Shown here: positions 1 to 30,639 of the stretch, in pieces
Numbering within the stretch: position 1 is the stretch's first letter
Layout: each line of letters opens with the position of its first letter
NCBI GenBank assembly: GCA_026982145.1
Contig: JALSHQ010000393.1
Coordinates: 1-39,433 of the forward strand
DNA length: 39,433 nt
Source: Gammaproteobacteria bacterium
GTDB lineage: Bacteria; Pseudomonadota; Gammaproteobacteria; SZUA-140
Direction: 5' to 3'
Notes under the pieces: generated by a model
What the model saw: the letters and a program-made list of their open reading frames with translations, nothing else
What the model was told of the DNA's origin: nothing
Database searches by the model: none
Made by a program: the position numbers and the translations under genes

Positions 1-2
1 AT

Positions 3-656
3 AAAGCCAAGGTTGCACTCGATGCCGGTGACTTGGTGCTGGCGTTATTTGAAGTTGATGAATCCTTACGTTCAATGAGCACGGCTGCGCGCCTAGTGCC
101 CACGCCGGAGCAACTACAAGAGCAGAAATTAAAATTTGTTGCGCTGATGGAGGAAGTTAAGGTCTTTGAAAAATCATACAAGCGCAATGTTGAGCGGATG
201 GAAAAAAGTGGCCGAACAGATGTGCGTGACCATTTAAGCTATGCCGAGCTAGAAAGCACGATTGAGGCTGCTGAAAGCCTTCGTGACATGAAGGAGATTA
301 GCGCAGCGAATCGCCTCATGATAAATTTACAAAGGACAATCACCACCGCTTTAAGTAAGATACTTGATAGCCAGACGGTGGTTTATGATAAAACCTTTGA
401 GTCGCCACAAGAAGAGTATGAATATGAGTTGGCGCGTTACTTGAGCTACGAAGAGCTGGTACCACTGGCGATAGAGCAGAAGCGCCCATCAAAACGTGCG
501 ATTGAGTTGATGGATCAATTTGTGGTTAAGGGTAAAAATACCTATGAGCAAGCGCTGCCTGTGGCAGAGCAGAAAGATTACAAAAATGCGATTTTGATGT
601 TGCAGGGCGCAACATTTCAGATCAGGCGCGCATTACGGATGGTAGGGGTGAGATAG
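3..656 (+). CDS. Hypothetical protein with helical, charged composition; 5' end probably outside the window
   Basis: Track ORF 33..656 starts at a TTG. The same frame has no stop back to nt 3 (K-A-K-V-A-L-D-A-G-D precedes it), so the gene may begin upstream of the window. I recognise no motif and see no signal peptide in the visible part. Its stop lies 1 nt before the next start (658), which implies co-transcription with the cytochrome genes. Confidence 0.55.
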   Translation, partial: KAKVALDAGDLVLALFEVDESLRSMSTAARLVPTPEQLQEQKLKFVALMEEVKVFEKSYKRNVERMEKSGRTDVRDHLSYAELESTIEAAESLRDMKEISAANRLMINLQRTITTALSKILDSQTVVYDKTFESPQEEYEYELARYLSYEELVPLAIEQKRPSKRAIELMDQFVVKGKNTYEQALPVAEQKDYKNAILMLQGATFQIRRALRMVGVR

Positions 657-657
657 T

Positions 658-1308
658 ATGACGCAGGCCATGGGTGACCGATCACAAAAAACACGGCCAA
701 TAATGGGTTGGTGGTGTGTGCTCGCGCTGATGGCCTGCCTAACCTTTAGTACTCAAGGCACGGCTGCAGATTCAGTTTTTTCTGACGCATCCAATCCATC
801 AGAGCCAGGCATTACTGCAGTATGGTCTCGTGGCCTCCATTTTCAGACAGAAGGCGAAGTGGTGCCGTTGGCGGAAGATGGCATTCATGACCCGACCAAT
901 GATGCGGTGCATCTGCTGCAGGAACCCTATGAGTCGATGGCGGAGTTTCCTCGCGACTCGCAGGGCATCATCGATTGGGTTCAGACCCTACGTCAGGGGT
1001 TGATTGACCCTCGTATGAGCTTGACCGGTGAAGAGAAGATGTACACGGTCGACTTCGATATCATATTTAAAAATACAGGCTCGATGCCGCATGTCCGTTT
1101 TCCACATCTACAGCACACCGAGTGGCTCACCTGCGCGAACTGCCACCCGTTGATTTTTGTTCCTCAAAAAGGCGGCAACCCTGTCTCCATGTCAGCCATT
1201 ATTCAGGGTGAATATTGTGGTGTTTGCCATGGCAAGGTCGCCTTTCCACCTACGATGAATTGCGGCCGATGCCATTCCGTTCCAAATCAAGCCAACTTGC
1301 GGCGCTAA
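658..1308 (+). CDS. Exported c7-type trihaem cytochrome c
   Basis: Three CXXCH motifs (CANCH, CGVCH, CGRCH) sit in the last ~75 aa. The strings IDWVQTLRQGLIDPR and CGVCHGKVAFP match my memory of the c(7)-type trihaem domain family. There is a hydrophobic N-terminal export signal (GWWCVLALMACLTF..GTAAD). Confidence 0.85.
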   Translation: MTQAMGDRSQKTRPIMGWWCVLALMACLTFSTQGTAADSVFSDASNPSEPGITAVWSRGLHFQTEGEVVPLAEDGIHDPTNDAVHLLQEPYESMAEFPRDSQGIIDWVQTLRQGLIDPRMSLTGEEKMYTVDFDIIFKNTGSMPHVRFPHLQHTEWLTCANCHPLIFVPQKGGNPVSMSAIIQGEYCGVCHGKVAFPPTMNCGRCHSVPNQANLRR

Positions 1309-2555
1309 TTGCGCTCACTTCATCCCTCTTCATTGGGGGCTGCTCGATGCTCCCTTTCGGGGGCGCGAGCAGTAGTGACGCGCGTACTGCACCCAAACAG
1401 CAAACGCTTTATGGTTGGGGGTGGCGTGATATTGATGGTGGACGTGAGCTGGAAGGGAATGCGATTTTAGGTCAGCGTCATGTGCGCTTTGTACGACCAG
1501 TACAAGTGGCCGCACGCGGGAATTTTGTTTTTGTGGTGGATGCCGGCGTGCAGTTGCTCTATCGGTACGACTTGTCTCGTGATCAGTTGGCGGTGGTTCT
1601 GGATCTACGTGCGGTGACCGTGGGCGAAGTTTCTGACATCTACCTTTATCAGGATCACTCCTTTTTGCTGGTTGACCCGGATGCCGGGCGGGTGCTTCAT
1701 TTTGACCGCAATGGGCGATTGATCCGCACTTTTGAAGATCGTCTGAATCTGATCCGCCCGGTCGCCGTAACCTACGATGAACAGATGGGGCGTGTACTCA
1801 TCGCGGATGGTTCAAGTGACGATATTCTTGTGTTCACCTCGACCGGGCAACTTCAGGGTGTGATCGGTTCACGTGGTCTCACCGAAGGAAAGTTTCTTAA
1901 CCTTACGGCCATCACCTCAGGTGAACGCGGCATTTACGCGACCGCGCGTTTAGGGCATCGGGTACAACTGATGGGGCGTGATGGTTCGCACCAAAAAACA
2001 TTTCAGCCTGATACCGTGGTTTTTCCACTCGCGATAGCGGTCGATAAAAGCGGTAACACCTTTGTGAGTGACTATCTCGATAACTCAATTAAAGTGTTTC
2101 AAAATGATCTGTTCCTTGAGAGCATCGGCAGCTCTGGCATCGGCCCGGGAAGATTCAAACGTATTACGGACCTGTGGTATGACGACGGTTTTCTCTATGC
2201 GGTGGATAGCCTGAATGGGCGAATACAGGTGCTGCGTGTTGAAATGGTGGAACCTGAAGCGCTGCCTGAGAGTGCTGATGAGCTTATCGATAATGAGCTC
2301 GATGATGTTTTGAGTGATGAATTTGATGATCTGGCGGAGAGCCGTGATGCCGATGCGATGGTGTTGGATGAGCCGCAGGTGTTGGATGCCGCACTGTCTG
2401 AATCTGAGAAAACTCAGGCCGCCCAGACGGAATTAGCGGCGGGAAAAGCAGAAGTAGCAGGTGAGGTGTCGCTTGAAAGCCCCGTGATTTCTGATGAAGT
2501 GCTGCCTGAGTCATCGCAGGTGAACGGCACACCTGATCGCACCGTTCAGGAATAA
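1269..2555 (+). CDS. NHL-repeat beta-propeller lipoprotein with a strongly acidic C-terminal tail
   Basis: The track ORF starts at 1215, inside the previous gene. The ATG at 1269 (Met19 of the ORF) gives MPFRSKSSQLAALIALTSSLFIGGC, a lipoprotein signal with a lipobox. NHL-type blades are present, e.g. PVAVTYDEQMGRVLIADGSSDDILVF, PLAIAVDKSGNTFVSDYLDNSIKVF and LWYDDGFLYAVDSLNGRIQVL. The last ~100 aa are Asp/Glu-rich. Confidence 0.85.
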   Translation: MPFRSKSSQLAALIALTSSLFIGGCSMLPFGGASSSDARTAPKQQTLYGWGWRDIDGGRELEGNAILGQRHVRFVRPVQVAARGNFVFVVDAGVQLLYRYDLSRDQLAVVLDLRAVTVGEVSDIYLYQDHSFLLVDPDAGRVLHFDRNGRLIRTFEDRLNLIRPVAVTYDEQMGRVLIADGSSDDILVFTSTGQLQGVIGSRGLTEGKFLNLTAITSGERGIYATARLGHRVQLMGRDGSHQKTFQPDTVVFPLAIAVDKSGNTFVSDYLDNSIKVFQNDLFLESIGSSGIGPGRFKRITDLWYDDGFLYAVDSLNGRIQVLRVEMVEPEALPESADELIDNELDDVLSDEFDDLAESRDADAMVLDEPQVLDAALSESEKTQAAQTELAAGKAEVAGEVSLESPVISDEVLPESSQVNGTPDRTVQE

Positions 2556-2561
2556 TTCCCC

Positions 2562-3638
2562 ATGATTGATAAACCCCACCACTGGTTGGCGGCGCTACTA
2601 TGCCTGTTTATTGTTGGCTGTGCTTCTGCGCCTCCGGTGCTGAAGCTTGACCTGCATGAGGTTCAGGGGTATGTCTGGCCGAGTGAGCCAGAAGTGGCTC
2701 GTTACCAATATGTTGGCCAACTGACGGGCGAAGAAAACTTCATTAAAGAGGTTGATGATGTTTCAATGACCCGCAAGGTGTTTGAGTGGGTGGTCGGGAT
2801 CGTGGCGGGTGAAATGATCCCCACAGTGTTGCAACGCCCCCAGTCGGGCGCAGTGGATAGCGACGGCCGTATCTACGTCACGGATGTTAGCCGAGCTGCG
2901 GTTTATGTTTTTGATGGCGTGGCTGGCAAGCTGGATGTGTGGGAGATGGCAGGTGAACAGCTGCGTTTTAAAACCCCCATTGGGCTGGTGGTGGTGGAGC
3001 GTGAAGCGGGTGAACGTGAAATTCTCGTGGCTGATGCAGACCTTAAGCGCATTGTTCGACTAGATCAAAACGGGAAGCCAATAGGCCATTTTGGTTTAGA
3101 CGTTTTATCACGCCCCACCGGGCTTGCACGAGACCCAGAGAGTGGCCATCTCTTTGTCGCCGATACCTACACTCATGAGATTAAAGTTTTTAGCGCTGAA
3201 GGGGTGCTACTTAATACCCTTGGAGCCGGTGCGCGCAGTGCTGGGCTTGGCGAGTTTAATGCGCCAACACATCTCTCTTTTGCTGCTGGGCAGCTCTATG
3301 TGACAGATACGTTGAACTCACGTGTTCAGGTGTTGAGTGGCGCGGGTGAATTTGTGCGCACCTTTGGGCGGCGGGGGCTTTTTGTAGGGGATCTGCCACG
3401 CCCTAAAGGCGTGGCGGTAGACAAAGAGGGTAATGTCTATGTGGTGGAATCCTATTATGATCATCTGTTAGTATTCAACCAAGAGGGGAGTCTGCTATTG
3501 CCCATCGGAGGCTCGGGCAGTGGGTTAGGTGAGTTTTACCTGCCGGCAGGTGTCTGGACAGATCACCGTGACAGAATATATGTGGCCGATAGTTTCAATG
3601 GTCGGGTTGTGATATTGCAGTATTTGGGAGGGGCATGA
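2562..3638 (+). CDS. NHL-repeat beta-propeller lipoprotein
   Basis: Lipobox signal (LLCLFIVGCASAP). Classic NHL blades are present: GEFNAPTHLSFAAGQLYVTDTLNSRVQVL, PRPKGVAVDKEGNVYVVESYYDHLLVF and GEFYLPAGVWTDHRDRIYVADSFNGRVVIL. The stop overlaps the next start (ATGA at 3635-3638). Confidence 0.9.
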   Translation: MIDKPHHWLAALLCLFIVGCASAPPVLKLDLHEVQGYVWPSEPEVARYQYVGQLTGEENFIKEVDDVSMTRKVFEWVVGIVAGEMIPTVLQRPQSGAVDSDGRIYVTDVSRAAVYVFDGVAGKLDVWEMAGEQLRFKTPIGLVVVEREAGEREILVADADLKRIVRLDQNGKPIGHFGLDVLSRPTGLARDPESGHLFVADTYTHEIKVFSAEGVLLNTLGAGARSAGLGEFNAPTHLSFAAGQLYVTDTLNSRVQVLSGAGEFVRTFGRRGLFVGDLPRPKGVAVDKEGNVYVVESYYDHLLVFNQEGSLLLPIGGSGSGLGEFYLPAGVWTDHRDRIYVADSFNGRVVILQYLGGA

Positions 3639-6316
3639 AACGTCATTTTTCGAGCACGTTATTGATCCTACTTGCTATTTTTACGATGGCGAGTTCAGCC
3701 CTTGCCGCGCGTATTTCTGATATCGCAAATACCAAACATAATTTTTCGGCAACCGTCGCCCCGAGTGAGACGGCGCGCGAAGCGAGAGCGGTTTCCGAGT
3801 CCCAGATCTGTGCTTTTTGCCACACGCCTCACGGTGCTACCAATGAGGCGCGAACACCCCTCTGGAACCGAACGCTTTCGAGCGCCACTTACACGCCGTA
3901 CGGGTCAACATCACTGGATGCCACTGATCTTGGGCAGCCTGAAGGAAAATCCAAACTCTGCCTGTCGTGCCACGATGGTACGCTTGCGCTCGGTTCAGTG
4001 AATGTATTGAACCGTGTTGAACTGAAAAAAGAGGGGCGTGAGATCCCTTTTCAGGGGACGCGCGCGGATGGTTCTATTCCTGATGGATTGGGTGAAACCA
4101 CAGGCTTTACTCGCCGCATTGGTGTTGATCTGAGCAATGATCACCCCATTTCATTTACCTTCGATAGCGCACAGGCTGTGCGAGACGGGGAGCTCTTTAA
4201 CCCTGCCGCTGTGTCACATATCAAAGAGCGCAGGCCGGGCAGTGGGCCGGCATTTCCGCAGTCGCAACAGACCGGGGTGCAGGGCTATCTGCCGCTGGAG
4301 GATGGTCAGGTTGAGTGTATTACTTGTCATGACCCCCATATCCGCTCGGATGATCCGAACGAAGGCAACATCAAATTTCTGCGCGTAAACCGTATGCAAC
4401 GCCACGCTGAGCCGGTAGATGGGCAGTTTAATGCGGATAACGATATCATCTGCATCGCTTGCCACGATAAAGAGGGATGGGTCGGCTCAGCACACGCTAA
4501 CCGACTCGCTGCGGATGAGAGCTATGACCTTGCTGCGGGCAACCTGCGTGAGTTTCCTCGGGATACTCAAGTGTGGCAAGCGTCTTGCCTGAACTGTCAT
4601 GACCCGCACACGGTGCAGGGGTCTCGTCGCATCTTGCGCGAGGGAACCGATGGCCCGACGACGGTGGATCCGGTGACAGGAGCAAGATTCAAACAGGGGG
4701 GGGATCACGCCATTGAGGAGGTCTGTTACGCTTGTCATTCGACCGATGGTGGTGTCTTGGTGGGGCAGGGCGGCGTGGGTTTTCAAGTGCCCGATGTGAA
4801 AACTGATTTTGTGACACCGGGCAATATCCATATGCCGATCGCAAGTGCCGACCAGCGTGCCGGGCGAGAAGTTCACTCCATTGGTACCGGTAGCGATGGG
4901 CCTGAAGGGCGAACGCGTGGGCAGGATTTTGTTGAATCACCAGAGAGCATGGGCAAGGGAAATTTAATGAACCGCCATGTGGAGTGTACAGATTGCCATA
5001 ATCCGCACCGGGTGGCTAAAAATCGCATGTTTAATGCCAATAATGCGATTCCTGATGAAGCGGGTACCCATCCACACACACCCGCAGATATTGCGGCAAA
5101 TGGCTTAACCATGCATACCAACTTAGCTTCTGGGGTGCTGCGTGGCATTACAGGGGTGGAGCCTGTTTATGGCTCTGCTGCTTTTGGCAGCGAACCAGTG
5201 AGCTTTATACTTAAGCGTGGTGACCCGGGTACCGGAGGCGGCACTAATGTAGAAGAGCCGTATGTGACACGTGAGTATCAGGTTTGCCTCAAATGCCACT
5301 CAAATTATTCTTACGACACTCCACCACCATTAGGGCTGCATGGCGGGAGTACGCCGGTGGGCACCAATGCGATGTTTGAATACACTAATCAGGCGATGGA
5401 ATATCAGGCACCGGCATCGCATATGGGTGAGTTGAGCTCCTCTCCAGCACCCGGCTGGGGGCCGTTTGTCGGCATCGATATTGGTGGGAATAGCGTCGAT
5501 TATGAGGCCAACAATCACCGCTCATGGCACCCGGTGATTGACAGAACCGGGCGTACCGCTGATGCTGCATCGAGCGGGGGTGGCGAGCGCCGCGCCTCAA
5601 AAGATGTCTGGCGAACACCCTTTAACATCGATGGCGCAGTCGGTAATCAAACCATGTACTGCACGGATTGCCATGGCAATAACACCGCGAATGACACAGT
5701 CATCCCCAATGGTGGTGTCAATGGTGAAGTTTGGGGGCCTCACGGCTCGCAAAATAACTTTCTGTTAAAAGGGCCGTGGGACGACCAGACCGGTCGCACC
5801 CAGCCAGATGGCCTCTGTTTCAGATGCCATGACTACAACCAATATGCGAGCAACGCCAATCCCATTACTACACCTGTTTTGGCCAGTGGCTTTAAAGCGA
5901 CTGGCGGGGCTGGTTGTATTAACTTTACAGCGCAAAACTTGCATTTGGCACATGCGGGTGCAGGCACGAATGGTGCCCCTGTGACTGGTGTGACAAACTT
6001 TCGTTGTACCCTGTGTCATATCGCGGTGCCTCATGGCTGGAAAAATAAAGTCTTTCTGGCAAACCTAAATGATGTGGGTGCTGAGGCTGGCATGTTACCC
6101 GGCACTCAGGTGAGGTACACCGGCTTTGCCCCCTCTGGCACCGGTCGATATTATGCGGGTCCGTATTACAATGGTGCAGCCTTGAAGGTCAATACCTTTG
6201 CTCGTAGTGGTTCATGGATAGACCAAAACTGTGGCTCTTCCGGGGCGCCTGGCAATAGCGCGATAGGCTTCTCTTGGATGGCAAGTGCTGACGAGACATG
6301 CGCCAGCCTGCCGTAA
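3635..6316 (+). CDS. Secreted undecahaem (11 x CXXCH) c-type cytochrome, 893 aa
   Basis: Sec-type signal peptide (LLILLAIFTMASSALA/AR). Eleven canonical motifs counted by hand: CAFCH, CLSCH, CITCH, CIACH, CLNCH, CYACH, CTDCH, CLKCH, CTDCH, CFRCH, CTLCH. Several have the CxxCHxxH form typical of 'doubled CXXCH' Geobacter-type multihaem cytochromes. I found no non-canonical haem motif. Confidence 0.92.
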   Translation: MKRHFSSTLLILLAIFTMASSALAARISDIANTKHNFSATVAPSETAREARAVSESQICAFCHTPHGATNEARTPLWNRTLSSATYTPYGSTSLDATDLGQPEGKSKLCLSCHDGTLALGSVNVLNRVELKKEGREIPFQGTRADGSIPDGLGETTGFTRRIGVDLSNDHPISFTFDSAQAVRDGELFNPAAVSHIKERRPGSGPAFPQSQQTGVQGYLPLEDGQVECITCHDPHIRSDDPNEGNIKFLRVNRMQRHAEPVDGQFNADNDIICIACHDKEGWVGSAHANRLAADESYDLAAGNLREFPRDTQVWQASCLNCHDPHTVQGSRRILREGTDGPTTVDPVTGARFKQGGDHAIEEVCYACHSTDGGVLVGQGGVGFQVPDVKTDFVTPGNIHMPIASADQRAGREVHSIGTGSDGPEGRTRGQDFVESPESMGKGNLMNRHVECTDCHNPHRVAKNRMFNANNAIPDEAGTHPHTPADIAANGLTMHTNLASGVLRGITGVEPVYGSAAFGSEPVSFILKRGDPGTGGGTNVEEPYVTREYQVCLKCHSNYSYDTPPPLGLHGGSTPVGTNAMFEYTNQAMEYQAPASHMGELSSSPAPGWGPFVGIDIGGNSVDYEANNHRSWHPVIDRTGRTADAASSGGGERRASKDVWRTPFNIDGAVGNQTMYCTDCHGNNTANDTVIPNGGVNGEVWGPHGSQNNFLLKGPWDDQTGRTQPDGLCFRCHDYNQYASNANPITTPVLASGFKATGGAGCINFTAQNLHLAHAGAGTNGAPVTGVTNFRCTLCHIAVPHGWKNKVFLANLNDVGAEAGMLPGTQVRYTGFAPSGTGRYYAGPYYNGAALKVNTFARSGSWIDQNCGSSGAPGNSAIGFSWMASADETCASLP

Positions 6317-7353
6317 AATCTGTTTTACGTCGCCTAGCATCAACCAAACTGACACTGTTGTGGATGGTGTTGTTGGGGGTAGGTGCGACGCTTAGCTATG
6401 GTAATCCGGTGGAAACCTCCATTTGGGTACTGATCGTACCGATGCTGTTGTTGGCGATCAACTTGGTGGCGGCGATTATCAGCAACCCGCGCATCAACCG
6501 CCGTGGTGGCCTGCTGGTCTTTCATATTGGTCTATTAGGGATTGTGGTACTGGCGGCTATCGGCCGCCTGACCCATATGGAGGCACGTGTTGAGATCATC
6601 TCCGGCAATGAGTTTTCGCATGACCATCTGATTGAAGTACGCGCCGGGCCTCTCCATAATGGTGCCATCAATGAGGTGCGCTTTGTGCAAGGCCCCTACA
6701 CTGTTGAGTACCGAGCGCGGATGAGTCGTGGCCGCACTTACAGTCAGGTGGCAATTCCTGATGGCGAAGGGGGCTGGTATGAATCTGTGGTGGGGGATGA
6801 TCGCCCACTCGTCATTGAGGGGTACCGCTTCTACACCACTTTTAATAAAGGGTTTGCACCGATCATGAGCTGGATCGGTGAAGAGGGTAATGTGATCGAA
6901 ACGGGTGCGGTGCACATGCCATCATACCCCTTGTTTGATTTTAAGCAGTCAAACAGTTGGACGCCCAAAGGTGGCGATGAAATAAAATTCTGGTTACAGC
7001 TAGAGACCGGCCTCAATGCAGAAGAGGCGTGGGTACTTGATGGAAGAGAAGCAACAGGCACACTGGTAGTGAATGTTGCGGGCAAGCGCACAGAGTTGTT
7101 GCCGGGTGAGAGTGTGAAAATGGCGGGCGGCTCGTTGCGTTACGAGCAACTCACGACCTGGATGGGTTACAAACTCTATTATGACCCCACCTTGCAGTGG
7201 ATGTTCTTGATCTCGGTGATCACTGTGGCGGGGCTTGGTGGCCATTTTTGGCGTAAGTTATCGGCGGAACCGCTTGGGTTGGATGATGCGCTTCGTGGTG
7301 AAAAAAAGCTGGTAAAAGGATCGGTGCCCGCACCGCGTTCAGCATCGGTGTAA
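6298..7353 (+). CDS. ccsB: ResB/CcsB-family cytochrome c biogenesis protein (System II)
   Basis: The N-terminus LRRLASTKLTLLWMVLLGVGATLSY is typical of ResB. TM helices flank a ~200 aa periplasmic loop. There is a conserved-looking TM histidine (LLVFHIGLLG) and a final TM helix (WMFLISVITVAGLGGHFW). The gene overlaps the cytochrome gene by 19 nt and is followed by ccsA. Confidence 0.8.
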   Translation: MRQPAVKSVLRRLASTKLTLLWMVLLGVGATLSYGNPVETSIWVLIVPMLLLAINLVAAIISNPRINRRGGLLVFHIGLLGIVVLAAIGRLTHMEARVEIISGNEFSHDHLIEVRAGPLHNGAINEVRFVQGPYTVEYRARMSRGRTYSQVAIPDGEGGWYESVVGDDRPLVIEGYRFYTTFNKGFAPIMSWIGEEGNVIETGAVHMPSYPLFDFKQSNSWTPKGGDEIKFWLQLETGLNAEEAWVLDGREATGTLVVNVAGKRTELLPGESVKMAGGSLRYEQLTTWMGYKLYYDPTLQWMFLISVITVAGLGGHFWRKLSAEPLGLDDALRGEKKLVKGSVPAPRSASV

Positions 7354-7357
7354 GGAG

Positions 7358-8224
7358 ATGAGTGTGATGACAGAACTACCATGGTTATATGCGGCGCTTA
7401 GCGCTTATGCGTTAGCGACAATCGCCTCCCTCGTTGGCGTCGGGCGGCTTGGTACACCGGCCACAAGCCCCGCGGATTTTGCTGTCAGCGAAGACCAGCG
7501 AAATAATGAAAGATTAGTGCTGGCGCTGATGACCGCCAGCGTTATTTTATTGGTCGTCACCCTGACCGATCGCTGGCTGCGCATTGGCCATGGCCCCTTT
7601 GTAAACTTGTTTGAACTCTTGATTAGTCAGCTCTTTAGTTTGGGGTTGGTCTATGCTGTTGCCTATTGGCGCATTCCCGTACTGCGCCCCACATCCGTTG
7701 TGGTGTTGCCGTTGATGGGGGTACTGGCTGTCTGGGTGTTGGTGCTAGAACCTTCGGATAGCGTTTTTCCGCCTACCTACCACAACCCATGGCTATGGGC
7801 ACATGTCGGTTTTGGGAAATTCTTTCTGGCGTTCAGTTTGATTGGCACCGGCTTGGCGGGGGTGATCTTGCTGCGCAGTCGAGCCTATTTTAAAAACCTC
7901 TTTCGTCACCTTCCCGATAATGTGATTCTCGACAAGCTTGCTTGGCGCTTCATGTTGTTGGCGCTGGTATTTGACAGCCTGATGCTCATTGCCGGTGGTG
8001 TCTGGGCGCAGGATGCGTGGGGTCGATACTGGGCATGGGATGCGCTTGAAACCTCATCCTTTCTAAATTGGCTCTTGCTGGGTGCCTCGATTCACGCTCG
8101 CACCACCTACAACGTGCCGATACGCGTTGGTGCACTGCTCATTATCGGTATTTTTGTGTTCGCCTTTGTCACCTATTTTGGAACGCCTTTTTACAGTGAA
8201 GCAGCGCACAAAGGTGTTATCTAG
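7358..8224 (+). CDS. ccsA: CcsA/ResC-family haem-handling protein (System II cytochrome c synthase subunit)
   Basis: Polytopic membrane protein with the Trp-rich WWD-type motif WAQDAWGRYWAWDALETSSF, followed by a conserved His region (GASIHART). It lies 5 nt after ccsB. Confidence 0.88.
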   Translation: MSVMTELPWLYAALSAYALATIASLVGVGRLGTPATSPADFAVSEDQRNNERLVLALMTASVILLVVTLTDRWLRIGHGPFVNLFELLISQLFSLGLVYAVAYWRIPVLRPTSVVVLPLMGVLAVWVLVLEPSDSVFPPTYHNPWLWAHVGFGKFFLAFSLIGTGLAGVILLRSRAYFKNLFRHLPDNVILDKLAWRFMLLALVFDSLMLIAGGVWAQDAWGRYWAWDALETSSFLNWLLLGASIHARTTYNVPIRVGALLIIGIFVFAFVTYFGTPFYSEAAHKGVI

Positions 8225-8238
8225 CGGAGCAGACGGTC

Positions 8239-9006
8239 GTGGTGGATAAAAAAAGAAGCAGCAATGAGTCGACGATCGCAACGCTATCCATCTTAATGGT
8301 GGGGATCGTTTCTGCTGCGATTGTAATGTTAATGATGAAAGATGACCCGAGGCAGCAGGAATCAGTCACGCTAGCATCGTTACAATCCGCCTCCTCGATG
8401 CCGCTATCCACACCCAGCAAGGTGAACACTGAAGCGGTTGAGGCGCCACCTGACGCGACACCCATGCCAACGGTTGCATCAGCGCAGAGCCCAGAGGAGA
8501 AGCGGCTAGCGGAGATCACCACCCGCTTTGAGCAAGCCATCGTGATGCTGCATGCTAAAGAGTATGAGCATGCCGCCACCGCACTGCACCGCGTGATGGA
8601 ACTCTCCCCGCGCATGCCAGAGGTTTATGTGAATATGGGCTATGCCAAACTTGGGCAAGCGTTGCCACAAGAGGCGCTGGTCTTTTTTGAGACCGCCACG
8701 CAGTTGAAGCCCGAGCAAGCCAATGCTTACTGGGGGATGGCCGTAGCACTCGAAAGCATGGGCGACCTTGCGGGTGCGTTGGGTGCCATGCGCACCTTTA
8801 TTCACCTCTCCCCCGGAAATGACAATTTTGCACGACGTGCACGCTCTGCACTGTGGGAGTGGGAAGAGACGCTCGCACGAGGGCCGCTGCCAGAAGAAGA
8901 GAAAGAGTTTCTGGAGCGTGGTGCACTGCAATGGGAGTCGCGCAACACCCCGCGTGATGATGTTGAAAGCGGTGAACAGAACTTGCAAGTTCAGCCGATC
9001 CAATAA
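8239..9006 (+). CDS. Membrane-anchored TPR-repeat protein
   Basis: GTG start. One N-terminal TM helix (IATLSILMVGIVSAAIVMLMM), a low-complexity linker, then TPR-like repeats (YEHAATALHRVMELSPRMPEVYVNMGYAKLGQ..., ALVFFETATQLKPEQANAYWGMAVALESMGD...). Confidence 0.75.
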   Translation: MVDKKRSSNESTIATLSILMVGIVSAAIVMLMMKDDPRQQESVTLASLQSASSMPLSTPSKVNTEAVEAPPDATPMPTVASAQSPEEKRLAEITTRFEQAIVMLHAKEYEHAATALHRVMELSPRMPEVYVNMGYAKLGQALPQEALVFFETATQLKPEQANAYWGMAVALESMGDLAGALGAMRTFIHLSPGNDNFARRARSALWEWEETLARGPLPEEEKEFLERGALQWESRNTPRDDVESGEQNLQVQPIQ

Positions 9007-9019
9007 TTGAGTGCCGCTT

Positions 9020-9661
9020 ATGAAACGCGTGACGATCATTTTCTTGAGTCTATTTTTTATCTCTGCCATCGCGCAGGCGACGCCGCCAATACAGCTCTAT
9101 CAAAAAGGTGTTAGCTACCAAGAGATTGCAGGTGCAGAATCTACTTATCAGGGGGATAAGGTCGATGTACTTGAGATGTTGTGGTATGGCTGTCAAAGCT
9201 GCTACATGATTCAGGGTGACCTTGAGCAGTGGGTAGAGGGTTCTGCAAAGGTGATCACCTATCGCCGCATGCCAGCGGTGACAGATGACAATATGATACT
9301 GCTTGCTAGAACTTTTTATGCGGCCGAAGTATTAGGTGTGATGGATAAGGTCCACAAACCTCTGTTTACAGCCATACATGATGCCAAACGGCAGATGACG
9401 ACGGAAGAGGATGTGGGTGAGTTCTTTGAGGAGCAAGGGGTGAGCAGCAAAGATTTCTTCTCTGCACTGAATAGTAATTACGTGAACGGCAAGCTGCGTC
9501 GTGCACGTATGATGAGCAGTCGTTATGGCATCAAGGGTGCTCCATCAGTGATTGTAGACGGCAAGTATCTGGTGGACCCCTCAATGGTGACAAGCCCTCG
9601 CCAGTTTGTGGCGGTCATCAATTTCTTGGTGAATAAGGTACGAACAACGGTGCGTCCTTAA
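9020..9661 (+). CDS. dsbA: Periplasmic DsbA-like thiol:disulfide oxidoreductase with a CQSC active site
   Basis: The ATG at 9020 (Met4 of track ORF 9011) gives the signal peptide MKRVTIIFLSLFFISAIAQA. The thioredoxin-fold motif is LEMLWYGCQSCY. The C-terminal GIKGAPSVIVDGKYLV resembles the DsbA cis-Pro loop region. Overall the sequence is collinear with E. coli DsbA as I remember it. Confidence 0.8.
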   Translation: MKRVTIIFLSLFFISAIAQATPPIQLYQKGVSYQEIAGAESTYQGDKVDVLEMLWYGCQSCYMIQGDLEQWVEGSAKVITYRRMPAVTDDNMILLARTFYAAEVLGVMDKVHKPLFTAIHDAKRQMTTEEDVGEFFEEQGVSSKDFFSALNSNYVNGKLRRARMMSSRYGIKGAPSVIVDGKYLVDPSMVTSPRQFVAVINFLVNKVRTTVRP

Positions 9662-9686: not shown

Positions 9687-12452
9687 TTAATCAGAATCAG
9701 CCTTCAGGTGTGGTGTTTTTTGGTCAGCCGTTGCCCATAGTTCTGGTTTAGCCAAAGCATAGCCTTGCGCATAATCGACCCCCATGGTCACCAGTGCTTG
9801 TTCAATTTCCGAACTTTCAACAAACTCTGCAATGGTTTCGATGCCCATCACCCGGCTGATTTGAACGATGGATGAGACCATGACCCGGTCTACCTCATCG
9901 CCCAGCATATCTTTGACGAATGCACCTTCAATTTTCACGTAATCTACAGGCAGGTTTTTCAAGTAGCAAAATGAGCTTAGGCCGCTGCCGAAGTCATCAA
10001 GTGCAAATTTACACCCCAATGCCTTTAATTGATGCATGAAGGCCACAGCCGATGACAAATCCAGGATTGCAGCGGTTTCCGTAATTTCAAAACAGATCTG
10101 CTTTGGGTTTACGCCGCTGTTGGTAATCTCCTCAGTTACAAAATCAAGGAACCCCTCTTCACTGACCGATTTCCCAGAAAGGTTGATGTTATAGATGAAA
10201 TCATTCTCTTTCTCCAAGGCGATGCGCGCAAGCGCAGTGCAAAGTACCCAGCGGTCAATGGAGGGCATTAAACTGTACCTTTCAGCGGCCGGAATAAAAG
10301 CCATTGGTGAAACTAATTGACCATTTGCATCATGCATGCGAATTAAGATTTCATAATGTTTGGGTGCGTCGGGGGTTTGAATGGGTAAAATCAGCTGACG
10401 ATATAATCGAAAACGATGATGTTCAAATGCATCATGAATTTTGTGTGCCCAGTGCATTTCGCCTTGTCTAATGGTGAGTTCTTCATCGGTGACCGAGTAG
10501 ACGCATATTCGATTACGCCCTTTCTCTTTGGCCATATAGCAAGCAGAGTCTGCCGCGCTTAATAGATCTGATGCGGAGCCCATCTCCTTATCGATAGAGA
10601 CAAGGCCCATACTGGCACCCACATTGAAGGTTCTACCCTCCCATACAAATCGGCTATCTTTAAGTGAGTTATGTAACGATGATGTGATTTCCATTGCCTT
10701 TTCAATGTCGCAATCAAACAGTATTAATCCAAATTCATCTCCGCCAAGCCGTGCCAATACATCCGAGGTTCTTATTTTTGCTCTTAATAAAGAGGTCACT
10801 TGTTTTAAAAGTTTGTCGCCAACAACATGACCGCAGGTATCGTTGACCACTTTGAATTGATCCAGATCGATATAGCAGAGAACATCGCCAACCGATTGTC
10901 GATGACTTATGTGAAGAGAGCTTTCAAGTTGTTCTTCAAATTCGCGACGGTTCAAAAGCCCTGTTAATGCATCATGGCGTGCTTGGTGAGAGAGCAGCTT
11001 TGCCATGCGGCGCTCTTGAGTCACGTTGCGGAAGACGATCACCGCACCGATCACATCGCCATCCCGGTTGCGTATGCCTGATGCTGTTAAGTGGATTGAG
11101 AAAGATTCACCATTGCGGTTGTTGAGGGTTAGATCCAAATTTTTAAATTCATCAGTCGGGGTTGCTTGTATTTTGTTCAGCTGGTCTTCTAGCCTTGCCC
11201 CTGTAGTGGCATCAAATACGCTAAATACGTCGGTGATTTTTTTACTCAATGCAGCGGTGTTGCTATAGCCTGTGAAATGCTCAGCAACTTCGTTCATGTA
11301 CTCTATTTTTCCTTGCACATCGGTGGTGATGACGCCATCAGCAATAGAGTGCAGTGTCACTTCTGCAAGGTCTTTTTCTTTGAACAGCGCATCTTGAGCA
11401 TGTTCATTCTCGATGTCATGTAGTAAGTCCCCTTTAAGTACGCGGCGAGAGAGGAGCGACATTATGATTGCAAAAAGAAGTATGATGCCGGGCGTGACTA
11501 GATCTAGGTCTTTGAGGCGTATATTTTTGCTGGCTTGAAATACGAAGGGATGAGGGTTTGTACCACTATTCATATCGACTAAACGTGTCGCAGAGGGCAG
11601 CAGTTGGCTGAGTAGCGTGGTCTCTTTAAGTTTGTCTTTCTGATAAAGCAGGCCGGCCTTGTTTTGCTTGTTGAAACCTTGGTGGCGAAACAGTATTGAA
11701 GTGTCATCATCATTGATGGTGTTAAGCACATCGGGCAATAACTTGTCCATTGAGACGACAATGGCAAAAATACCATCTATTTGGCTTTTGCGGTCGAAGG
11801 TGTTGTTTGGGGTGATTTTCCCCTTATAGGCGGCTTTAAGCACATAAAAGACGCGCTCACCACTGGGGGTGGTTTGTGGCGTTGAGGTGATGGTGCCCCC
11901 TGTTGCAATTGCTTGCTGAATGACAGGAAATAGCACGGGGTCAGATAACGCATCAATCCCTAATGCCGAGATGGTATGGGGCTCTAAAGGTTCAACGAAT
12001 GTGATTGGAAAATAGACCTCTCTGTTTTTAGGGGCTGAGAGACCTGTTCGCATGTCACGAATCACAAAGGTTGCATAACCATCTTCTTGCTTGTTGCGTT
12101 CAAAATTTAACTTGTCACGGTTATCAATACGCGTCATATATTCTAGGGCATAGATGTGCGGGTAGTTTTCCAGCATATCCTCTGCAAAGATCGTGAGTTC
12201 ACTCGCATTGACCTGTGCTTGAGAGTGGTGCCAACCTGTTAATGCGGAAACTACGGCATGGTTTGCGTTCAACCTATTCTGTATTTGAGCATTTACAGCA
12301 CTCACTTGCTCATTAAAGGCGCGTTGCAAATTAGAAATATTGATTTGGAAAACGATGGTAATTAACAGGCCTGCGACGAGCGCGCACAACACTAACGCCA
12401 TGGTTAAACGGTAGCGGTAGGTTGAGAGGTGTTTCTTTTCACTCAGAGGCAT
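9687..12452 (-). CDS. CHASE-TM-PAS-GGDEF-EAL c-di-GMP signalling protein
   Basis: N-terminal TM helix, then a periplasmic region with CHASE-like strings (REVYFPITFVEPLEPHTISALGIDALSDP) and a second TM helix. A PAS region follows (ITTDVQGKIEYMNEVAEHFTGY). The GGDEF motif is intact with an RxxD I-site (RTSDVLARLGGDEF). The EAL domain is present (EILIR, CFEITET, DDFGSGLSSFCYLK, QGYALAKP). Confidence 0.92.
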   Translation of the reverse strand: MPLSEKKHLSTYRYRLTMALVLCALVAGLLITIVFQINISNLQRAFNEQVSAVNAQIQNRLNANHAVVSALTGWHHSQAQVNASELTIFAEDMLENYPHIYALEYMTRIDNRDKLNFERNKQEDGYATFVIRDMRTGLSAPKNREVYFPITFVEPLEPHTISALGIDALSDPVLFPVIQQAIATGGTITSTPQTTPSGERVFYVLKAAYKGKITPNNTFDRKSQIDGIFAIVVSMDKLLPDVLNTINDDDTSILFRHQGFNKQNKAGLLYQKDKLKETTLLSQLLPSATRLVDMNSGTNPHPFVFQASKNIRLKDLDLVTPGIILLFAIIMSLLSRRVLKGDLLHDIENEHAQDALFKEKDLAEVTLHSIADGVITTDVQGKIEYMNEVAEHFTGYSNTAALSKKITDVFSVFDATTGARLEDQLNKIQATPTDEFKNLDLTLNNRNGESFSIHLTASGIRNRDGDVIGAVIVFRNVTQERRMAKLLSHQARHDALTGLLNRREFEEQLESSLHISHRQSVGDVLCYIDLDQFKVVNDTCGHVVGDKLLKQVTSLLRAKIRTSDVLARLGGDEFGLILFDCDIEKAMEITSSLHNSLKDSRFVWEGRTFNVGASMGLVSIDKEMGSASDLLSAADSACYMAKEKGRNRICVYSVTDEELTIRQGEMHWAHKIHDAFEHHRFRLYRQLILPIQTPDAPKHYEILIRMHDANGQLVSPMAFIPAAERYSLMPSIDRWVLCTALARIALEKENDFIYNINLSGKSVSEEGFLDFVTEEITNSGVNPKQICFEITETAAILDLSSAVAFMHQLKALGCKFALDDFGSGLSSFCYLKNLPVDYVKIEGAFVKDMLGDEVDRVMVSSIVQISRVMGIETIAEFVESSEIEQALVTMGVDYAQGYALAKPELWATADQKTPHLKADSD

Positions 12453-21185: not shown

Positions 21186-21830
21186 GTGGATAAGGCGCTG
21201 CTTGAAATTCGGGCACTGGAATGCGTGCGCGGAGATAAGCAGCTCTTTAGTGAGCTCTCATTTTCACTGGAGGCGGGTTCGTTGCTGCATGTGCATGGCC
21301 CTAACGGCAGCGGTAAAACGACGCTGCTGCGCGCCATTGCAGGGCTAGTGTTGCAGGAGTGCGGCGAGATTCGCTGGAATGGTGAATTGGTGACGCAGCA
21401 GCAGGATGAGTTTAACCGTGAGCTGCTCTATTTGGGACACCATTATGGGCTCAAGTTTGAGTTGACCGGTTATGAGAATTTAAAGGTGTTCGCCAACCTG
21501 AGTGGTTCTGAGACCAGCGAACATGAGGTGGAGGCGGCATTGACGCGCTTTGGTTTGGCGCACTGTGTTGAATTACCAGTGAAGGTGTTGTCGCAAGGGC
21601 AGAAACGGCGTGTTGCACTGGCGCGACTGCTACTGCAGCCATCGAAGTTGTGGATACTGGACGAGCCTTTTGTGGCGCTGGATGTGGCGGCGGTGGAGTT
21701 GTTGCTAGAGGTGATTAGGACGCATGTTGCCAGTGGTGGCATGGTGATTTTGACCACTCACCAAGAGGTGGCAGTAGAAGTGGGAAGTTTGCAGCACCTG
21801 CACCTTGGCTCTTCGGTGAGGCAGCACTGA
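21186..21830 (+). CDS. ccmA: Cytochrome c biogenesis ATP-binding export protein CcmA
   Basis: Walker A motif GPNGSGKTTLLR, ABC signature LSQGQKRRVALARL and Walker B motif LWILDEP. GTG start. First gene of the ccm operon. Confidence 0.93.
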   Translation: MDKALLEIRALECVRGDKQLFSELSFSLEAGSLLHVHGPNGSGKTTLLRAIAGLVLQECGEIRWNGELVTQQQDEFNRELLYLGHHYGLKFELTGYENLKVFANLSGSETSEHEVEAALTRFGLAHCVELPVKVLSQGQKRRVALARLLLQPSKLWILDEPFVALDVAAVELLLEVIRTHVASGGMVILTTHQEVAVEVGSLQHLHLGSSVRQH

Positions 21831-22498
21831 TGCTAGCGGCATTGAGATGTATGGTGATACGGGATCTAACGCTGGCGATGCGCCACCGTTCAGATGTGTT
21901 AACGACGGTGTTCTTTTTTATCATCGTGGTGAGCCTGTTTCCGCTGGGCGTAGGGCCTGATGCGCAGCTCTTAAAAGAGATGGCGGCGGGGGTAGTGTGG
22001 GTTGCCGCGCTGTTGGCATCGATGTTGTCGTTAACGCGTCTGTTTGCAGATGATTTCAATGACGGCACGCTGGAACAGCTGTTGTTGGTGCCGCAGCCGT
22101 TGGCACTGATTGTATTGGGCAAGGTGCTGGCACACTGGATTATTTCGGGTCTACCGCTGGTGCTGATGTCGCCGCTGCTAGGGTTGCAGTTTGGGCTTGA
22201 AGGTGACGAGTTGATTATGTTGATGGTGACCCTGCTGATAGGGACACCCGTGTTGAGTTTACTAGGCGCCATTGGCGCGGCGCTGACATTGGGGTTGCGC
22301 GGCGGTGGTGTGTTGGTATCGCTATTGGTGTTACCGCTTTACATTCCTGTGCTGATTTTTGGCGCGGGCGCGGTGACGGCAAGCGCGGCTGGGATGGGAG
22401 CCGATGGGCACCTATCATTGATGGGCGCAATATTGTTACTGGCGTTAGCACTTGCGCCATGGGCCTCGGCGGCAGCGCTTAGGATATCGGTGGAATAG
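21830..22498 (+). CDS. ccmB: Haem exporter membrane protein CcmB
   Basis: A 222-aa polytopic membrane protein. Its start shares one nt with the ccmA stop (TGATG). Its position and length are canonical. Confidence 0.92.
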   Translation: MLAALRCMVIRDLTLAMRHRSDVLTTVFFFIIVVSLFPLGVGPDAQLLKEMAAGVVWVAALLASMLSLTRLFADDFNDGTLEQLLLVPQPLALIVLGKVLAHWIISGLPLVLMSPLLGLQFGLEGDELIMLMVTLLIGTPVLSLLGAIGAALTLGLRGGGVLVSLLVLPLYIPVLIFGAGAVTASAAGMGADGHLSLMGAILLLALALAPWASAAALRISVE

Positions 22499-22545
22499 CT
22501 TTTGTATAAAGCGCTATAGAATTTTAAATTGAGAAGATAAGCATC

Positions 22546-23295
22546 GTGTTTAACTTGTTTAAATTTGCATCACCCGCGACTTTTTATCCGCTAGCGGGAA
22601 GGCTTGCGATGGGGTTTGGCATCGCCTCTGCCATTTTGCTGGCGATCGGGCTCTATATGAGCTTTTTTGTCGCGCCGACAGATTACAAACAAGGCGAAGG
22701 GTATCGCATCATGTTTATTCATGTGCCCGCAGCGTGGATGTCGATGCTCATCTATGTGGTGATGGCGTGCTGGGCGGCCGCCGGGATGATCTGGCATACA
22801 CGCCTCTCTTCGATGATGGCTTCGTCACTCGCACCCACCGGCGCGATGTTCACCTTTATTGCGTTGTGGACGGGCGCGCTGTGGGGCAAACCGATGTGGG
22901 GGGCTTGGTGGGTGTGGGATGCACGCCTAACCTCCGAGCTGATTTTACTATTTCTCTATATCGGCTTTATGGCGCTGGAGTCAGCGATTGATGACCCGCG
23001 TCGCGCCGCGCGTGCCAGTGGTCTTTTAGCGCTGGTAGGGGTGGTCAATGTGCCCATTATCTATTACTCCGTGCAGTGGTGGAATACGCTCCATCAAGGC
23101 AGTTCGATCAAGATTGTTGATGGCGGGGTCGAGAGCAGCATGTCTGAAATAATGGTTTGGACACTGTTGGTGATGACCTTCGCCTGCTGGTTCTACACCA
23201 TTGCAGTGGCGTTGTGTCGGGTGCGCAGTATCATCCTTGAGCGCGAAGCCAATACATCGTGGGTGAAAGAGTTATTGCAAGGGGCAAAATCATGA
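22546..23295 (+). CDS. ccmC: Haem exporter / haem-handling protein CcmC
   Basis: The WWD motif GAWWVWDARLTSELILLFLY is nearly identical to E. coli CcmC. Confidence 0.95.
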   Translation: MFNLFKFASPATFYPLAGRLAMGFGIASAILLAIGLYMSFFVAPTDYKQGEGYRIMFIHVPAAWMSMLIYVVMACWAAAGMIWHTRLSSMMASSLAPTGAMFTFIALWTGALWGKPMWGAWWVWDARLTSELILLFLYIGFMALESAIDDPRRAARASGLLALVGVVNVPIIYYSVQWWNTLHQGSSIKIVDGGVESSMSEIMVWTLLVMTFACWFYTIAVALCRVRSIILEREANTSWVKELLQGAKS

Positions 23296-23471
23296 GTGAA
23301 TGGTTCGCCATGGGTGGGCACGGCCTTTATATTTGGGGGTCATATGGCGTGGCGGCTTTGTATATGATTGTTGAAGTGATCCTCGTGGTGCGCCGCAGAC
23401 GCAGTTTAGTGCAGCGCTTGGGGCGGATGATCCGAATGAAAGCACACGCAGATTTAGAGGTACCGAAATGA
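23292..23471 (+). CDS. ccmD: Haem exporter protein CcmD
   Basis: The ATG at 23292 (Met12 of track ORF 23259) overlaps the ccmC stop (ATGA). The product is a 59-aa single-TM protein, MSEWFAMGGHGLYIWGSYGV..., which is typical of CcmD. Confidence 0.88.
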   Translation: MSEWFAMGGHGLYIWGSYGVAALYMIVEVILVVRRRRSLVQRLGRMIRMKAHADLEVPK

Positions 23472-23974
23472 AGTCTAGACATAAACGTATGGTGTTTATC
23501 GCCGTTGGCCTAGTGGCGTTGGGCGGTGCGGTCGCACTGATTCTGAATGCGCTCAACAGCAACATTAATCACTTTTTCAGCCCGACCGAAGTACACGCCG
23601 ATGCAGCGCCGAAAGATCGCTCTTTTCGTTTGGGCGGTCTGGTCGAGGTGGGTAGCATTCAGCGTGAAGATGACGGGCTAACCGTACACTTTCGGGTGAC
23701 CGATAACGCCGAAACCGTGCCGGTGGTCTACACTGGTATCCTGCCTGATCTATTCCGTGAAGGTGAAGGGGTGGTAGCGCAGGGCAAGATCGACAATGAG
23801 GGTGTTTTTCATGCAGATGAAGTGTTGGCTAAACATGATGAAACCTACATGCCACCGGAAGTCGCCGAGGCGCTTGAAAAGGCCGAACAGGCAAAACTAG
23901 AACAGGCCAAGGCGGCATCAGCCGTTGAGTCCTCGGTCGTTAAGCCGCTCACCCAGCCACAAGAGGGAATATAG
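23468..23974 (+). CDS. ccmE: Haem chaperone CcmE
   Basis: LPDLFREGEGVVAQG and the haem-binding histidine motif VLAKHDETYMPPEV. Confidence 0.96.
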   Translation: MKSRHKRMVFIAVGLVALGGAVALILNALNSNINHFFSPTEVHADAAPKDRSFRLGGLVEVGSIQREDDGLTVHFRVTDNAETVPVVYTGILPDLFREGEGVVAQGKIDNEGVFHADEVLAKHDETYMPPEVAEALEKAEQAKLEQAKAASAVESSVVKPLTQPQEGI

Positions 23975-26984: not shown

Positions 26985-27072
26985 GCATTGGGCGATTTGA
27001 ATAAATTGGCCAATATCAGAGCAACCCGTAGAGAGTAAAGCCGCTAAGGCTGATGCAGAGGAAATTTAAGGC

Positions 27073-30583: not shown

Positions 30584-30639
30584 ACGCAGGCCGCATGTTT
30601 GTGCTCTGCTTGAAATGAACTGAATAAAAGGTAGAAAAC

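Follow-up and report, generated by a model that had tools for sequence, protein, structure and literature searches.

A uet-type cytochrome cluster with OmcE-related components in an uncultured gammaproteobacterium of or near the order Tenderiales

The uet (undecahaem electron transfer) genes were named in Candidatus Tenderia electrophaga and its relatives, where uetABCDEFGHIJ is followed by ccsAB, nrfG and batABD; the published roles are a tetrahaem cytochrome (UetA), a peptidyl-prolyl isomerase (PPIase; UetB), a β-barrel (UetC), c7 trihaem cytochromes (UetD, UetE and UetG), a cupredoxin (UetF), NHL proteins (UetH and UetI) and an undecahaem cytochrome (UetJ) (Eddie et al. 2022, bioRxiv 10.1101/2022.05.06.490989). 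The cluster is also known from Gallionella and Leptothrix iron oxidisers (PMC10734462, PMC13386937). Here we analyse contig JALSHQ010000393.1 of assembly GCA_026982145.1 (Gammaproteobacteria bacterium), the whole 39,433 nucleotides (nt) of which we call the window. Positions 1–9661 of the window almost certainly hold uetF(3′)-G-H-I-J-ccsB-like-ccsA-nrfG-like-dsbA, the downstream two-thirds of a uet-type cluster. The cluster itself had already been named, and the window adds another uncultured carrier. Two cytochromes of the cluster, UetA and UetJ, are related to the filament cytochrome OmcE.

Other described systems offer points of comparison. MtrCAB, PioAB and MtoAB share with Uet the logic of an outer-membrane barrel combined with multihaem cytochromes that carry electrons across. 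In Desulfovibrio ferrophilus IS5, NHL propellers are encoded and expressed together with multihaem cytochromes associated with the outer membrane (DFE_0448-0451, DFE_0461-0465) and have been proposed to stabilise the complex during electron uptake (PMC5815863, PMC9769857). These clusters, from a sulfate reducer of a different phylum, are described without a barrel and are compared here by description only. OmcE of Geobacter forms filaments. It has been suggested that five-haem OmcE-like proteins may form a new nanowire family; OmcE homologues occur in Pseudomonadota, and what is yet to be found is an OmcE-like 'stopper' or initiator, encoded alongside, that has a spare His (Petersen et al. 2025, bioRxiv 10.1101/2025.10.22.684050). 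In the osc (OmcS-companion) cluster of Geobacter sulfurreducens, OscH is assigned to folding, OscE, OscF and OscG to secretion and OscD to morphology (PMC13194489). Dedicated factors accompany a filament cytochrome in this case too, the likeness to Uet being by description only, and OmcS and OmcE are unrelated in sequence. In a 2025 abstract by Shen et al., OscH reportedly contains a prolyl isomerase and OscD is said to be β-propeller-like, which would parallel UetB, UetC and UetH/UetI.

Nine tightly spaced open reading frames (ORFs) occupy the plus strand of positions 1–9661 (Table 1), with distances of +1, −40, +6, −4, −19, +4, +14 and +4 nt at successive junctions. A first-pass annotation, made from the letters alone, had described nine same-strand genes packed at −40 to +14 nt, and the ORF coordinates bear this out. 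It had also counted two ATGA-type overlaps, of which only the 4-nt overlap at the uetI/uetJ junction qualifies, the remaining overlaps being 40 and 19 nt. Promoter-like and terminator-like sites within 1–9661 did not exceed their frequency in shuffled sequence; given this lack of excess internal sites, a single operon fits. Each family named in the first-pass annotation was recovered by profile search (Cytochrome_C7, two NHL, Paired_CXXCH_1, ResB, Cytochrom_C_asm, TPR and DSBA), and domain content and gene order agree gene by gene with the published uetA-J-ccsAB-nrfG list. The undecahaem-plus-NHL neighbourhoods that it mentioned for electroautotrophs and iron oxidisers correspond to the uet cluster, and its more general proposal, an extracytoplasmic multihaem electron-transfer module, is supported.

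An exact-sequence match of UetJ identified contig k141_492102 of ENA ERZ27262642 (54.7 kb; locus L001), in which the window begins at nt 6367, with 1 mismatch in 16316 nt. Inspection of the sequence directly 5′ of nt 1, as the first-pass annotation had advised, revealed in order a Porin_4 gene, a 279-amino-acid (aa) tetrahaem cytochrome (UetA), a SurA-like PPIase (UetB), a 594-aa barrel candidate (UetC), two c7 trihaem genes (UetD and UetE) and the first 223 codons of uetF. The full uetF spans 5697-7022 of this contig and starts 669 nt upstream of the window, so the first gene of the window, earlier taken as whole, is the 3′ part of a longer one. UetF has no Pfam match. Its C-terminal half, which is the part in the window, is a helical, Cys-free domain, and a cupredoxin-like N-terminal domain lies upstream of the window; in this upstream half His93, Cys139, His142 and Met145 are retained in about 70–78% of 58 family members. 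UetG matched the profiles PF14522 (Cytochrome_C7, 1.3e-11) and TIGR04257 (nanowire_3heme, 7e-18). Its best match among solved structures was 3ov0 (1.3e-28), which we take to be the dodecahaem protein GSU1996 of G. sulfurreducens. UetG is probably a periplasmic shuttle.

To place the cluster among its relatives, we scanned one genome per species, which gave 113 UetJ relatives, and kept 80 loci. Synteny was established by tblastn of all cluster proteins, with loci having enough flank as denominators. Cluster order and strand were the same nearly everywhere among the 80 loci. The gene for UetI lies directly upstream of uetJ in 61/69 loci, uetC lies upstream of uetJ on the same strand in 55/60, and a ResB-like gene follows uetJ within 6 kb in 62/71; a TPR gene is present in 59/80. 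Orthologues are thus syntenic across genomes, and the earlier proposal does not fail on this point. In contrast, dsbA is present in 27/80 loci, all of them closer relatives, and is a lineage-specific addition to the operon. Most of the kept loci come from gammaproteobacterial metagenome-assembled genomes (MAGs), many with the isolate labels SZUA-, S140_ or D96SM. These look to us like hydrothermal or marine survey names. Ca. T. electrophaga itself is not one of the 80 loci. One MAG labelled SZUA-140 shows full synteny and 61% UetJ identity, and SZUA-140 is an order placed beside Tenderiales (Eddie et al. 2022). We place the host, a gammaproteobacterium not yet in culture, within or close to Tenderiales.

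Further UetJ carriers were found in Gallionellaceae, Magnetococcales, Hyphomicrobiaceae, Woeseiaceae and Sedimenticola, and three are cultured. Ramlibacter alkalitolerans KACC 19305 (L059) has a nearly complete uetA-J-ccsBA-TPR cluster, Aestuariirhabdus sp. LZHN29 (L082) a partial, rearranged one, and Aromatoleum toluclasticum ATCC 700605 (L079) an orphan UetJ only. Orphan UetJ paralogues, with no other uet gene within 10 kb, occur at six loci (L043, L044, L047, L050, L071 and L079), and one Gallionellaceae MAG carries two tandem UetJ copies (L069 6878-12652).

The first-pass annotation had noted that no porin was present, and had concluded that the module is not a porin-cytochrome conduit. 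This was a window-edge artefact, given that uetC is upstream on the source contig and accompanies uetJ in most relatives. The candidate UetC has a signal peptide, a strand-like alternation that stands out from shuffled sequences (z = 5.5) and no hydrophobic transmembrane helix, and a C-terminal Phe is found in 43/53 orthologues. Together these features fit the published β-barrel prediction. UetC gave no significant match to a Pfam family and none to MtrB_PioB. The second absence that had been noted, that of an inner-membrane quinol dehydrogenase, holds for the cluster. Apart from the UetC barrel candidate there is a general porin of the Porin_4 family, whose gene lies just 5′ of uetA (L001 1-510), and a similar gene is found in the same place in 18/80 loci.

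The relationship of UetJ and UetA to OmcE was evident from comparison with PDB sequences. Residues 10-240 of UetJ matched 7tfs_A (1.9e-17) and 9yuq_N (1.6e-12), and the UetJ family profile matched Geobacter OmcE at 6e-37. UetA matched the same two chains over its full length (9yuq_N, 7e-28; 7tfs_A, 1.5e-25) and retains four CXXCH motifs and four extra His-containing blocks. Beyond the haem motifs, UetA/UetJ and the OmcE chains have in common the blocks NTKH, C-x-F-CHTPH, PLWNR, C-L-S-CHDG, NDHP and CHDPH, and the NTKH, CHTPH, NDHP and CHDPH blocks are present in both UetA and the N-terminal module of UetJ. We take 7tfs to be the OmcE filament of G. sulfurreducens; the OmcE sequence rebuilt from the 7tfs alignment is 98% identical to a G. 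sulfurreducens protein. The 16-chain entry 9yuq we infer to be the D. soudanensis OmcE bundle. By these matches, residues 10-240 of UetJ and the whole of UetA are homologues of OmcE. UetJ is composed of an OmcE-like four-haem N-terminal module (approximately residues 10-280) and a seven-haem extension. A homologue search with UetA returned close orthologues only, and Geobacter was reached by way of the OmcE sequence rebuilt from PDB alignments. We did not find the Uet-OmcE link in the literature: Petersen et al. 2025 mention neither Uet nor Tenderia, and the Uet paper does not mention OmcE.

UetJ contains exactly 11 CXXCH motifs, a Sec signal ending ALA-A and 81 aa per haem; no CXXCK or CX3-4CH variant motif and no other functional domain was found in it. 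All 11 motifs are invariant among 96 homologues, as are 15 non-motif His, enough for bis-His ligation of all 11 haems with four to spare. Judged by these residues, UetJ would have no evident open catalytic haem site. Among the non-haem Cys residues, C866 and C889 (window 6230-6316) are invariant in the same homologues and C761 is at least 90% conserved. The first two may be joined by a disulfide, in which case UetJ could be a substrate for the co-encoded DsbA.

Both NHL proteins of the operon carry a lipobox with a residue other than Asp after the lipid Cys, as the first-pass annotation had observed: FIGGC-S in UetH and IVGC-A in UetI. The lipobox is found in 40/53 UetH and 59/67 UetI orthologues, compared with 0/47 for UetA and only spurious matches for UetJ. 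The UetH signal requires translation from ATG 1269. The ORF is open from 1215, the 40-nt overlap with uetG depends on this start, and a public gene call starts at 1347 and loses the lipoprotein signal; we favour ATG 1269 because the lipobox is conserved. In the published cluster UetH received the PSORTb call 'cytoplasmic' (Eddie et al. 2022), in contrast to the lipoprotein signal and acidic tail found here, and a start mis-call like that at 1347 may explain it. The tail (residues ~330-428, window 2250-2555) comprises about 100 residues, is strongly acidic and disordered-looking, and is rich in E, D, S and L. It is limited to the closest relatives, whose orthologues have 413-445 aa versus 330-380 aa elsewhere. 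From its composition, it could bind cations or mineral surfaces.

UetI resembles the NHL lipoprotein encoded beside omcE in Geobacter (31% identity over 336 aa, blastp E 8e-42), which the UetI family profile matches end to end (8e-78) and the UetH profile matches at 3e-39. The scores by themselves are not sufficient evidence of kinship, since eukaryotic TRIM-NHL domains match UetI even more strongly. A profile of UetI residues 22-180, however, aligns from just past the lipobox in both the Geobacter protein and the third NHL protein of the window, whereas it matches UetH only from profile position 65 onward. This shared segment ahead of the propeller indicates that UetI-type lipoproteins are a specific subfamily, to which UetI and the protein beside omcE both belong. 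Given that UetI-type lipoproteins adjoin UetJ, the five-haem protein of the window and Geobacter omcE, the earlier idea that NHL propellers scaffold or dock the cytochromes gains support and is plausible.

The operon continues with genes for haem and thiol maturation. The PF05140 match of the ResB-like protein scored 41.7 bits (cut-off 24.6) and covers profile positions 150-263 only; its transmembrane His76 is conserved, and its similarity to Geobacter ResB is weak (hhalign E 7e-5, probability 63%). CcsA scored 103.5 bits against TIGR03144, below the equivalog cut-off of 187.6, and matched Geobacter CcsA at 7e-35. Both proteins of this System II pair are divergent members. The synthase nevertheless looks functional, because the WWD motif of CcsA (WAQDAWGRYWAWDALE) and its His78, His149, His246 and His284 are conserved among 63 sequences. 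The TPR protein, whose counterpart in the published cluster is named nrfG (Eddie et al. 2022), is a presumed apocytochrome chaperone, and the DsbA-like protein matched NF047695 at 1.1e-18, below the cut-off. Since the window also holds a full Ccm operon, the ResB-like/CcsA pair is an extra, cluster-linked system and the genome runs both. This agrees with the private maturation set proposed from the letters and with the additional cluster-linked System II noted by Eddie et al. (2022). No non-canonical haem motif was found in the cluster that would explain the need for a second system. In Geobacter, resB and ccsA lie directly upstream of the omcE cluster, a placement that fits co-transfer of the synthase with the module.

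Compared with the published uet cluster, the order tetrahaem-PPIase-barrel-c7-c7-cupredoxin-c7-NHL-NHL-11-haem-System II-TPR is the same here, and a Bat/VWA set, a ten-gene ccm operon and a secondary cytochrome cluster lie near by in both. The present locus differs in having dsbA after the TPR gene and in the insertion of CHASE-PAS-GGDEF-EAL and ABC_sub_bind genes; its bat genes are convergent with the operon.

The omcE locus of G. sulfurreducens (GSU0618 region; L083) encodes, in order, a PpcA-like c7 trihaem cytochrome, ResB, CcsA, a 9-haem and an 8-haem cytochrome, an NHL lipoprotein, OmcE, a 752-aa protein without a Pfam family, and glycosylation genes. The OmcE locus of Desulfuromonadia shares with Uet an OmcE-family tetrahaem cytochrome, a UetI-type NHL lipoprotein, a c7 cytochrome, ResB and CcsA, as well as further multihaem cytochromes; each locus also has a barrel candidate of its own. 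The two differ in gene order and content: Geobacter adds the glycosylation genes, and Uet adds the PPIase, the cupredoxin protein and the 11-haem fusion protein, which are absent from Geobacter. In addition, ResB/CcsA is the general maturation system in Geobacter and an extra one in Uet. A UetC profile built from 53 sequences did not match the 752-aa Geobacter barrel above negative controls in hmmsearch or hhalign (hhalign probability 0.2%). As to MtrCAB and PioAB, UetJ shows a local match of 53 bits to PF22113, the MtrC/MtrF domain II/IV family, whereas no MtrB/PioB-family porin occurs in the window or as UetC, and UetJ scores 41.9 bits against the MtrA/DmsE model TIGR03508 (cut-off 192.2). 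UetJ is also a non-lipoprotein, in contrast to MtrCAB, and c7 trihaems take the place of a decahaem as periplasmic partners.

The gene order after the operon (bat, ten-gene ccm, thioredoxin, cytochrome c, propellers, c-di-GMP, pentahaem and NHL) mirrors the described Ca. T. electrophaga genome (Table 1). Bat-type genes are counted within the uet module (Eddie et al. 2022), and the set is also on the minus strand in 13–17 other loci. The five-haem OmcE-like cytochrome and UetI-type NHL lipoprotein near the end of the window correspond to the 'secondary cytochrome cluster' of the Ca. T. electrophaga description, and the cytochrome matches the five-haem OmcE-like class suggested as a nanowire family (Petersen et al. 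2025). Past the window end (L085), two class-I multi-domain cytochrome c genes run divergently from this pair, and a barrel gene was not found within about 8 kb of it. Two adjacent Reg_prop proteins are further β-propeller proteins in the cytochrome neighbourhood. The two cyclic diguanylate (c-di-GMP) turnover proteins that flank the cytochrome and Bat genes may regulate biofilm formation or attachment. The class-III aminotransferase could be HemL-like (glutamate-1-semialdehyde aminomutase) and thereby tied to haem supply.

Table 1 Features of the window, in window coordinates
Feature	Position	Strand	Basis and remarks
uetF, 3′ part	<1..656	+	C-terminal 218 aa of a 441-aa protein; frame open to nt 1
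uetG, secreted trihaem c7-type cytochrome	658..1308	+	3 CXXCH
uetH, NHL β-propeller lipoprotein with ~100-aa acidic C-terminal tail	1269..2555	+	NHL and DUF5128 matches; lipobox
uetI, NHL six-blade-type β-propeller lipoprotein	2562..3638	+	NHL 4.3e-27; lipobox
uetJ, secreted 893-aa undecahaem cytochrome, non-lipoprotein	3635..6316	+	11 CXXCH; Paired_CXXCH_1
Short ResB/CcsB-like System II synthase subunit, 351 aa	6298..7353	+	PF05140 8.8e-11
CcsA-type haem-handling subunit, System II	7358..8224	+	PF01578 1.2e-21
N-terminally anchored TPR protein (NrfG/CcmI-like)	8239..9006	+	TPR families; one hydrophobic N-terminal helix
DsbA-like periplasmic thiol:disulfide oxidoreductase, CQSC motif	9011..9661	+	PF01323 5.3e-15
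CHASE-PAS-GGDEF-EAL c-di-GMP turnover protein	9687-12452	-	Convergent with uet operon, 25 nt from dsbA stop
batD, VWA-TPR, batA/VWA, DUF4381, DUF58, MoxR AAA	13862..20658	-	Pfam; convergent with operon
Complete System I operon ccmA, B, C, (D), E, F, G, H, I	21186-28362	+	12 kb from System II pair
Two adjacent Reg_prop ('two-component regulator propeller') proteins	29372-31983	+	After thioredoxin-like protein and monohaem cytochrome c
HAMP-PAS-GGDEF-EAL c-di-GMP turnover protein	32184-34652	+	
Class-III aminotransferase, 426 aa	34752-36032	+	Pfam family
UetI-type NHL lipoprotein, 371 aa	37161-38276	-	33% identity to UetI over 359 aa
Five-haem OmcE-like cytochrome, 295 aa	38261-39148	-	5 CXXCH; 9e-22 to UetA, 2e-20 to Geobacter OmcE

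These data allow us to propose how the cluster might work. The System II synthase, the TPR chaperone and DsbA would mature the 24 haem sites of the cluster beside the general Ccm system, and the c7 trihaems UetD, UetE and UetG would shuttle electrons across the periplasm. The UetC barrel would let the haem chain cross the outer membrane or be displayed there, with the OmcE-family cytochromes UetA (4 haems) and UetJ (11 haems) as the cell-surface end that touches solid donors or acceptors. UetH (Ser after the lipid Cys) and UetI (Ala), as putative outer-membrane lipoproteins, would hold or assemble the cytochrome complex. On balance electrons are probably taken up, from cathodes or from minerals that contain Fe(II) or S; this direction is taken from the hosts and their context, the hardware itself being reversible.

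We infer where the proteins sit, what they bind, which way electrons flow and what the NHL proteins do, and assign a function to the cluster solely by homology and from expression reported in the literature. On cathodes the trihaem genes rank with the most strongly expressed genes of Ca. T. electrophaga, and the undecahaem gene (Tel_16545) groups by expression with those for the terminal oxidase and alternative complex III (ACIII). We consider it likely, with some reserve, that the uet cluster mediates extracellular electron exchange. Combined with the near-certain identity of the cluster, this leads us to regard the overall reading, a uet-type cluster mediating such exchange, as quite probable. 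Several points weigh against it. Expression of the undecahaem gene did not change with electrode potential, and in the literature to mid-2026 we found no biochemical or genetic characterisation of any Uet protein. The UetC barrel is a prediction only, and homology could be detected neither to MtrB/PioB nor to the barrel of Geobacter. UetJ, an 893-aa non-lipoprotein, would also need a route to the surface. The AlphaFold2 model of UetJ is moderately confident (predicted local distance difference test, pLDDT, 71; predicted template modelling score, pTM, 0.79), and Foldseek found no structural neighbour of it in the PDB (best E 2.3, an amylase); coil-rich cytochrome models lacking haem seem to be invisible to Foldseek. 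Finally, the likeness to the Ca. T. electrophaga cluster (proteins ALP54622-ALP54637) was judged from its published description.

Of the other ways to read the locus, one sharpens the proposed exchange rather than replacing it. Uet could be a proteobacterial OmcE-type cytochrome-filament system. Polymers of UetA would then form outside the cell, and UetJ would use its OmcE-like N-terminal module to start, cap or anchor the filament and connect it to the barrel, with folding, secretion and anchoring left to UetB, UetC and UetH/UetI. UetA is homologous over its full length to two OmcE-type chains and keeps its four CXXCH motifs and four extra His blocks, and UetJ 10-240 matches the same chains. 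The G. sulfurreducens omcE locus has the same kinds of part, and for the assembly of OmcS a PPIase, a channel and another factor for morphology have been proposed. Invariant non-motif His in UetJ outnumber its haems by four, and a 'stopper' with a spare His is what Petersen et al. sought. Against this, filaments have not been observed in any organism that carries Uet, homology between UetC and the Geobacter barrel is undetectable, and tetrahaem OmcE-like proteins gave more than 7000 matches, most of which need not polymerise. NHL repeats are moreover generically alike, as the strong TRIM-NHL matches to UetI illustrate, and the physiological role of the OmcE and OmcS filaments is itself disputed. 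We hold such a filament system to be a tentative idea, somewhat improbable on present data. A fuller version is slightly more doubtful still: that Uet would be the proteobacterial counterpart of the OmcE nanowire, with UetJ completing the open haem at the filament end, as initiator, anchor or 'stopper', and joining the filament to UetC, and with UetI-type proteins as assembly or anchoring factors of all OmcE-like cytochromes, including the five-haem class.

The direction of flow could also be the opposite, with the module passing electrons from respiration out to Fe(III) or Mn(IV) minerals, the role that OmcE has in Geobacter. Metal reduction is what the closest homologues with a characterised function, OmcE and PpcA-like c7, serve; multihaem chains are reversible, and relatives occur in the heterotrophs Ramlibacter, Aromatoleum and Aestuariirhabdus. 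We think export unlikely all the same, given that the cluster was defined in a cathode-oxidising autotroph and occurs in iron-oxidising Gallionella and Leptothrix, and that the closest relatives are MAGs with labels that look to us like hydrothermal or marine survey names. Far less probable is a porin-independent module in which NHL propellers, and not a barrel, place the cytochromes at the outer membrane or a mineral. Positions 1–9661 do lack a porin gene and the five-haem/NHL pair has no barrel gene near by, but for the present operon this reading is contradicted by the source contig, on which the operon continues 5′ of nt 1 with UetC, and UetC is kept with UetJ elsewhere. We likewise rejected UetJ as a soluble periplasmic multihaem enzyme like the octahaem nitrite, hydroxylamine or tetrathionate reductases, and give this very little credence. 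UetJ is large for its haem number and has a Sec signal without a lipobox, but its weak matches to octahaem nitrite reductases are not significant (E 0.46). Its motifs are all canonical CXXCH, its invariant His suffice for bis-His ligation throughout, its N-terminal module is homologous to OmcE, and its constant neighbours are the barrel, the propeller lipoproteins and the shuttles, with no substrate-metabolism genes. The proposed extracellular electron exchange, with net uptake, thus remains our preferred reading.

One more carrier of a named cluster changes little by itself. The OmcE homology, however, connects a pathway proposed for electron uptake in autotrophs with a filament family of solved structure, and gives the unexplained NHL lipoproteins a concrete partner. 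Uet has so far been known from metagenomes and a biocathode enrichment, and the cultured carriers Ramlibacter alkalitolerans and Aestuariirhabdus could allow a first genetic test. If the filament proposal is true, organisms that oxidise cathodes, Fe(II) or minerals would also use cytochrome filaments, built with a compact and defined assembly kit.

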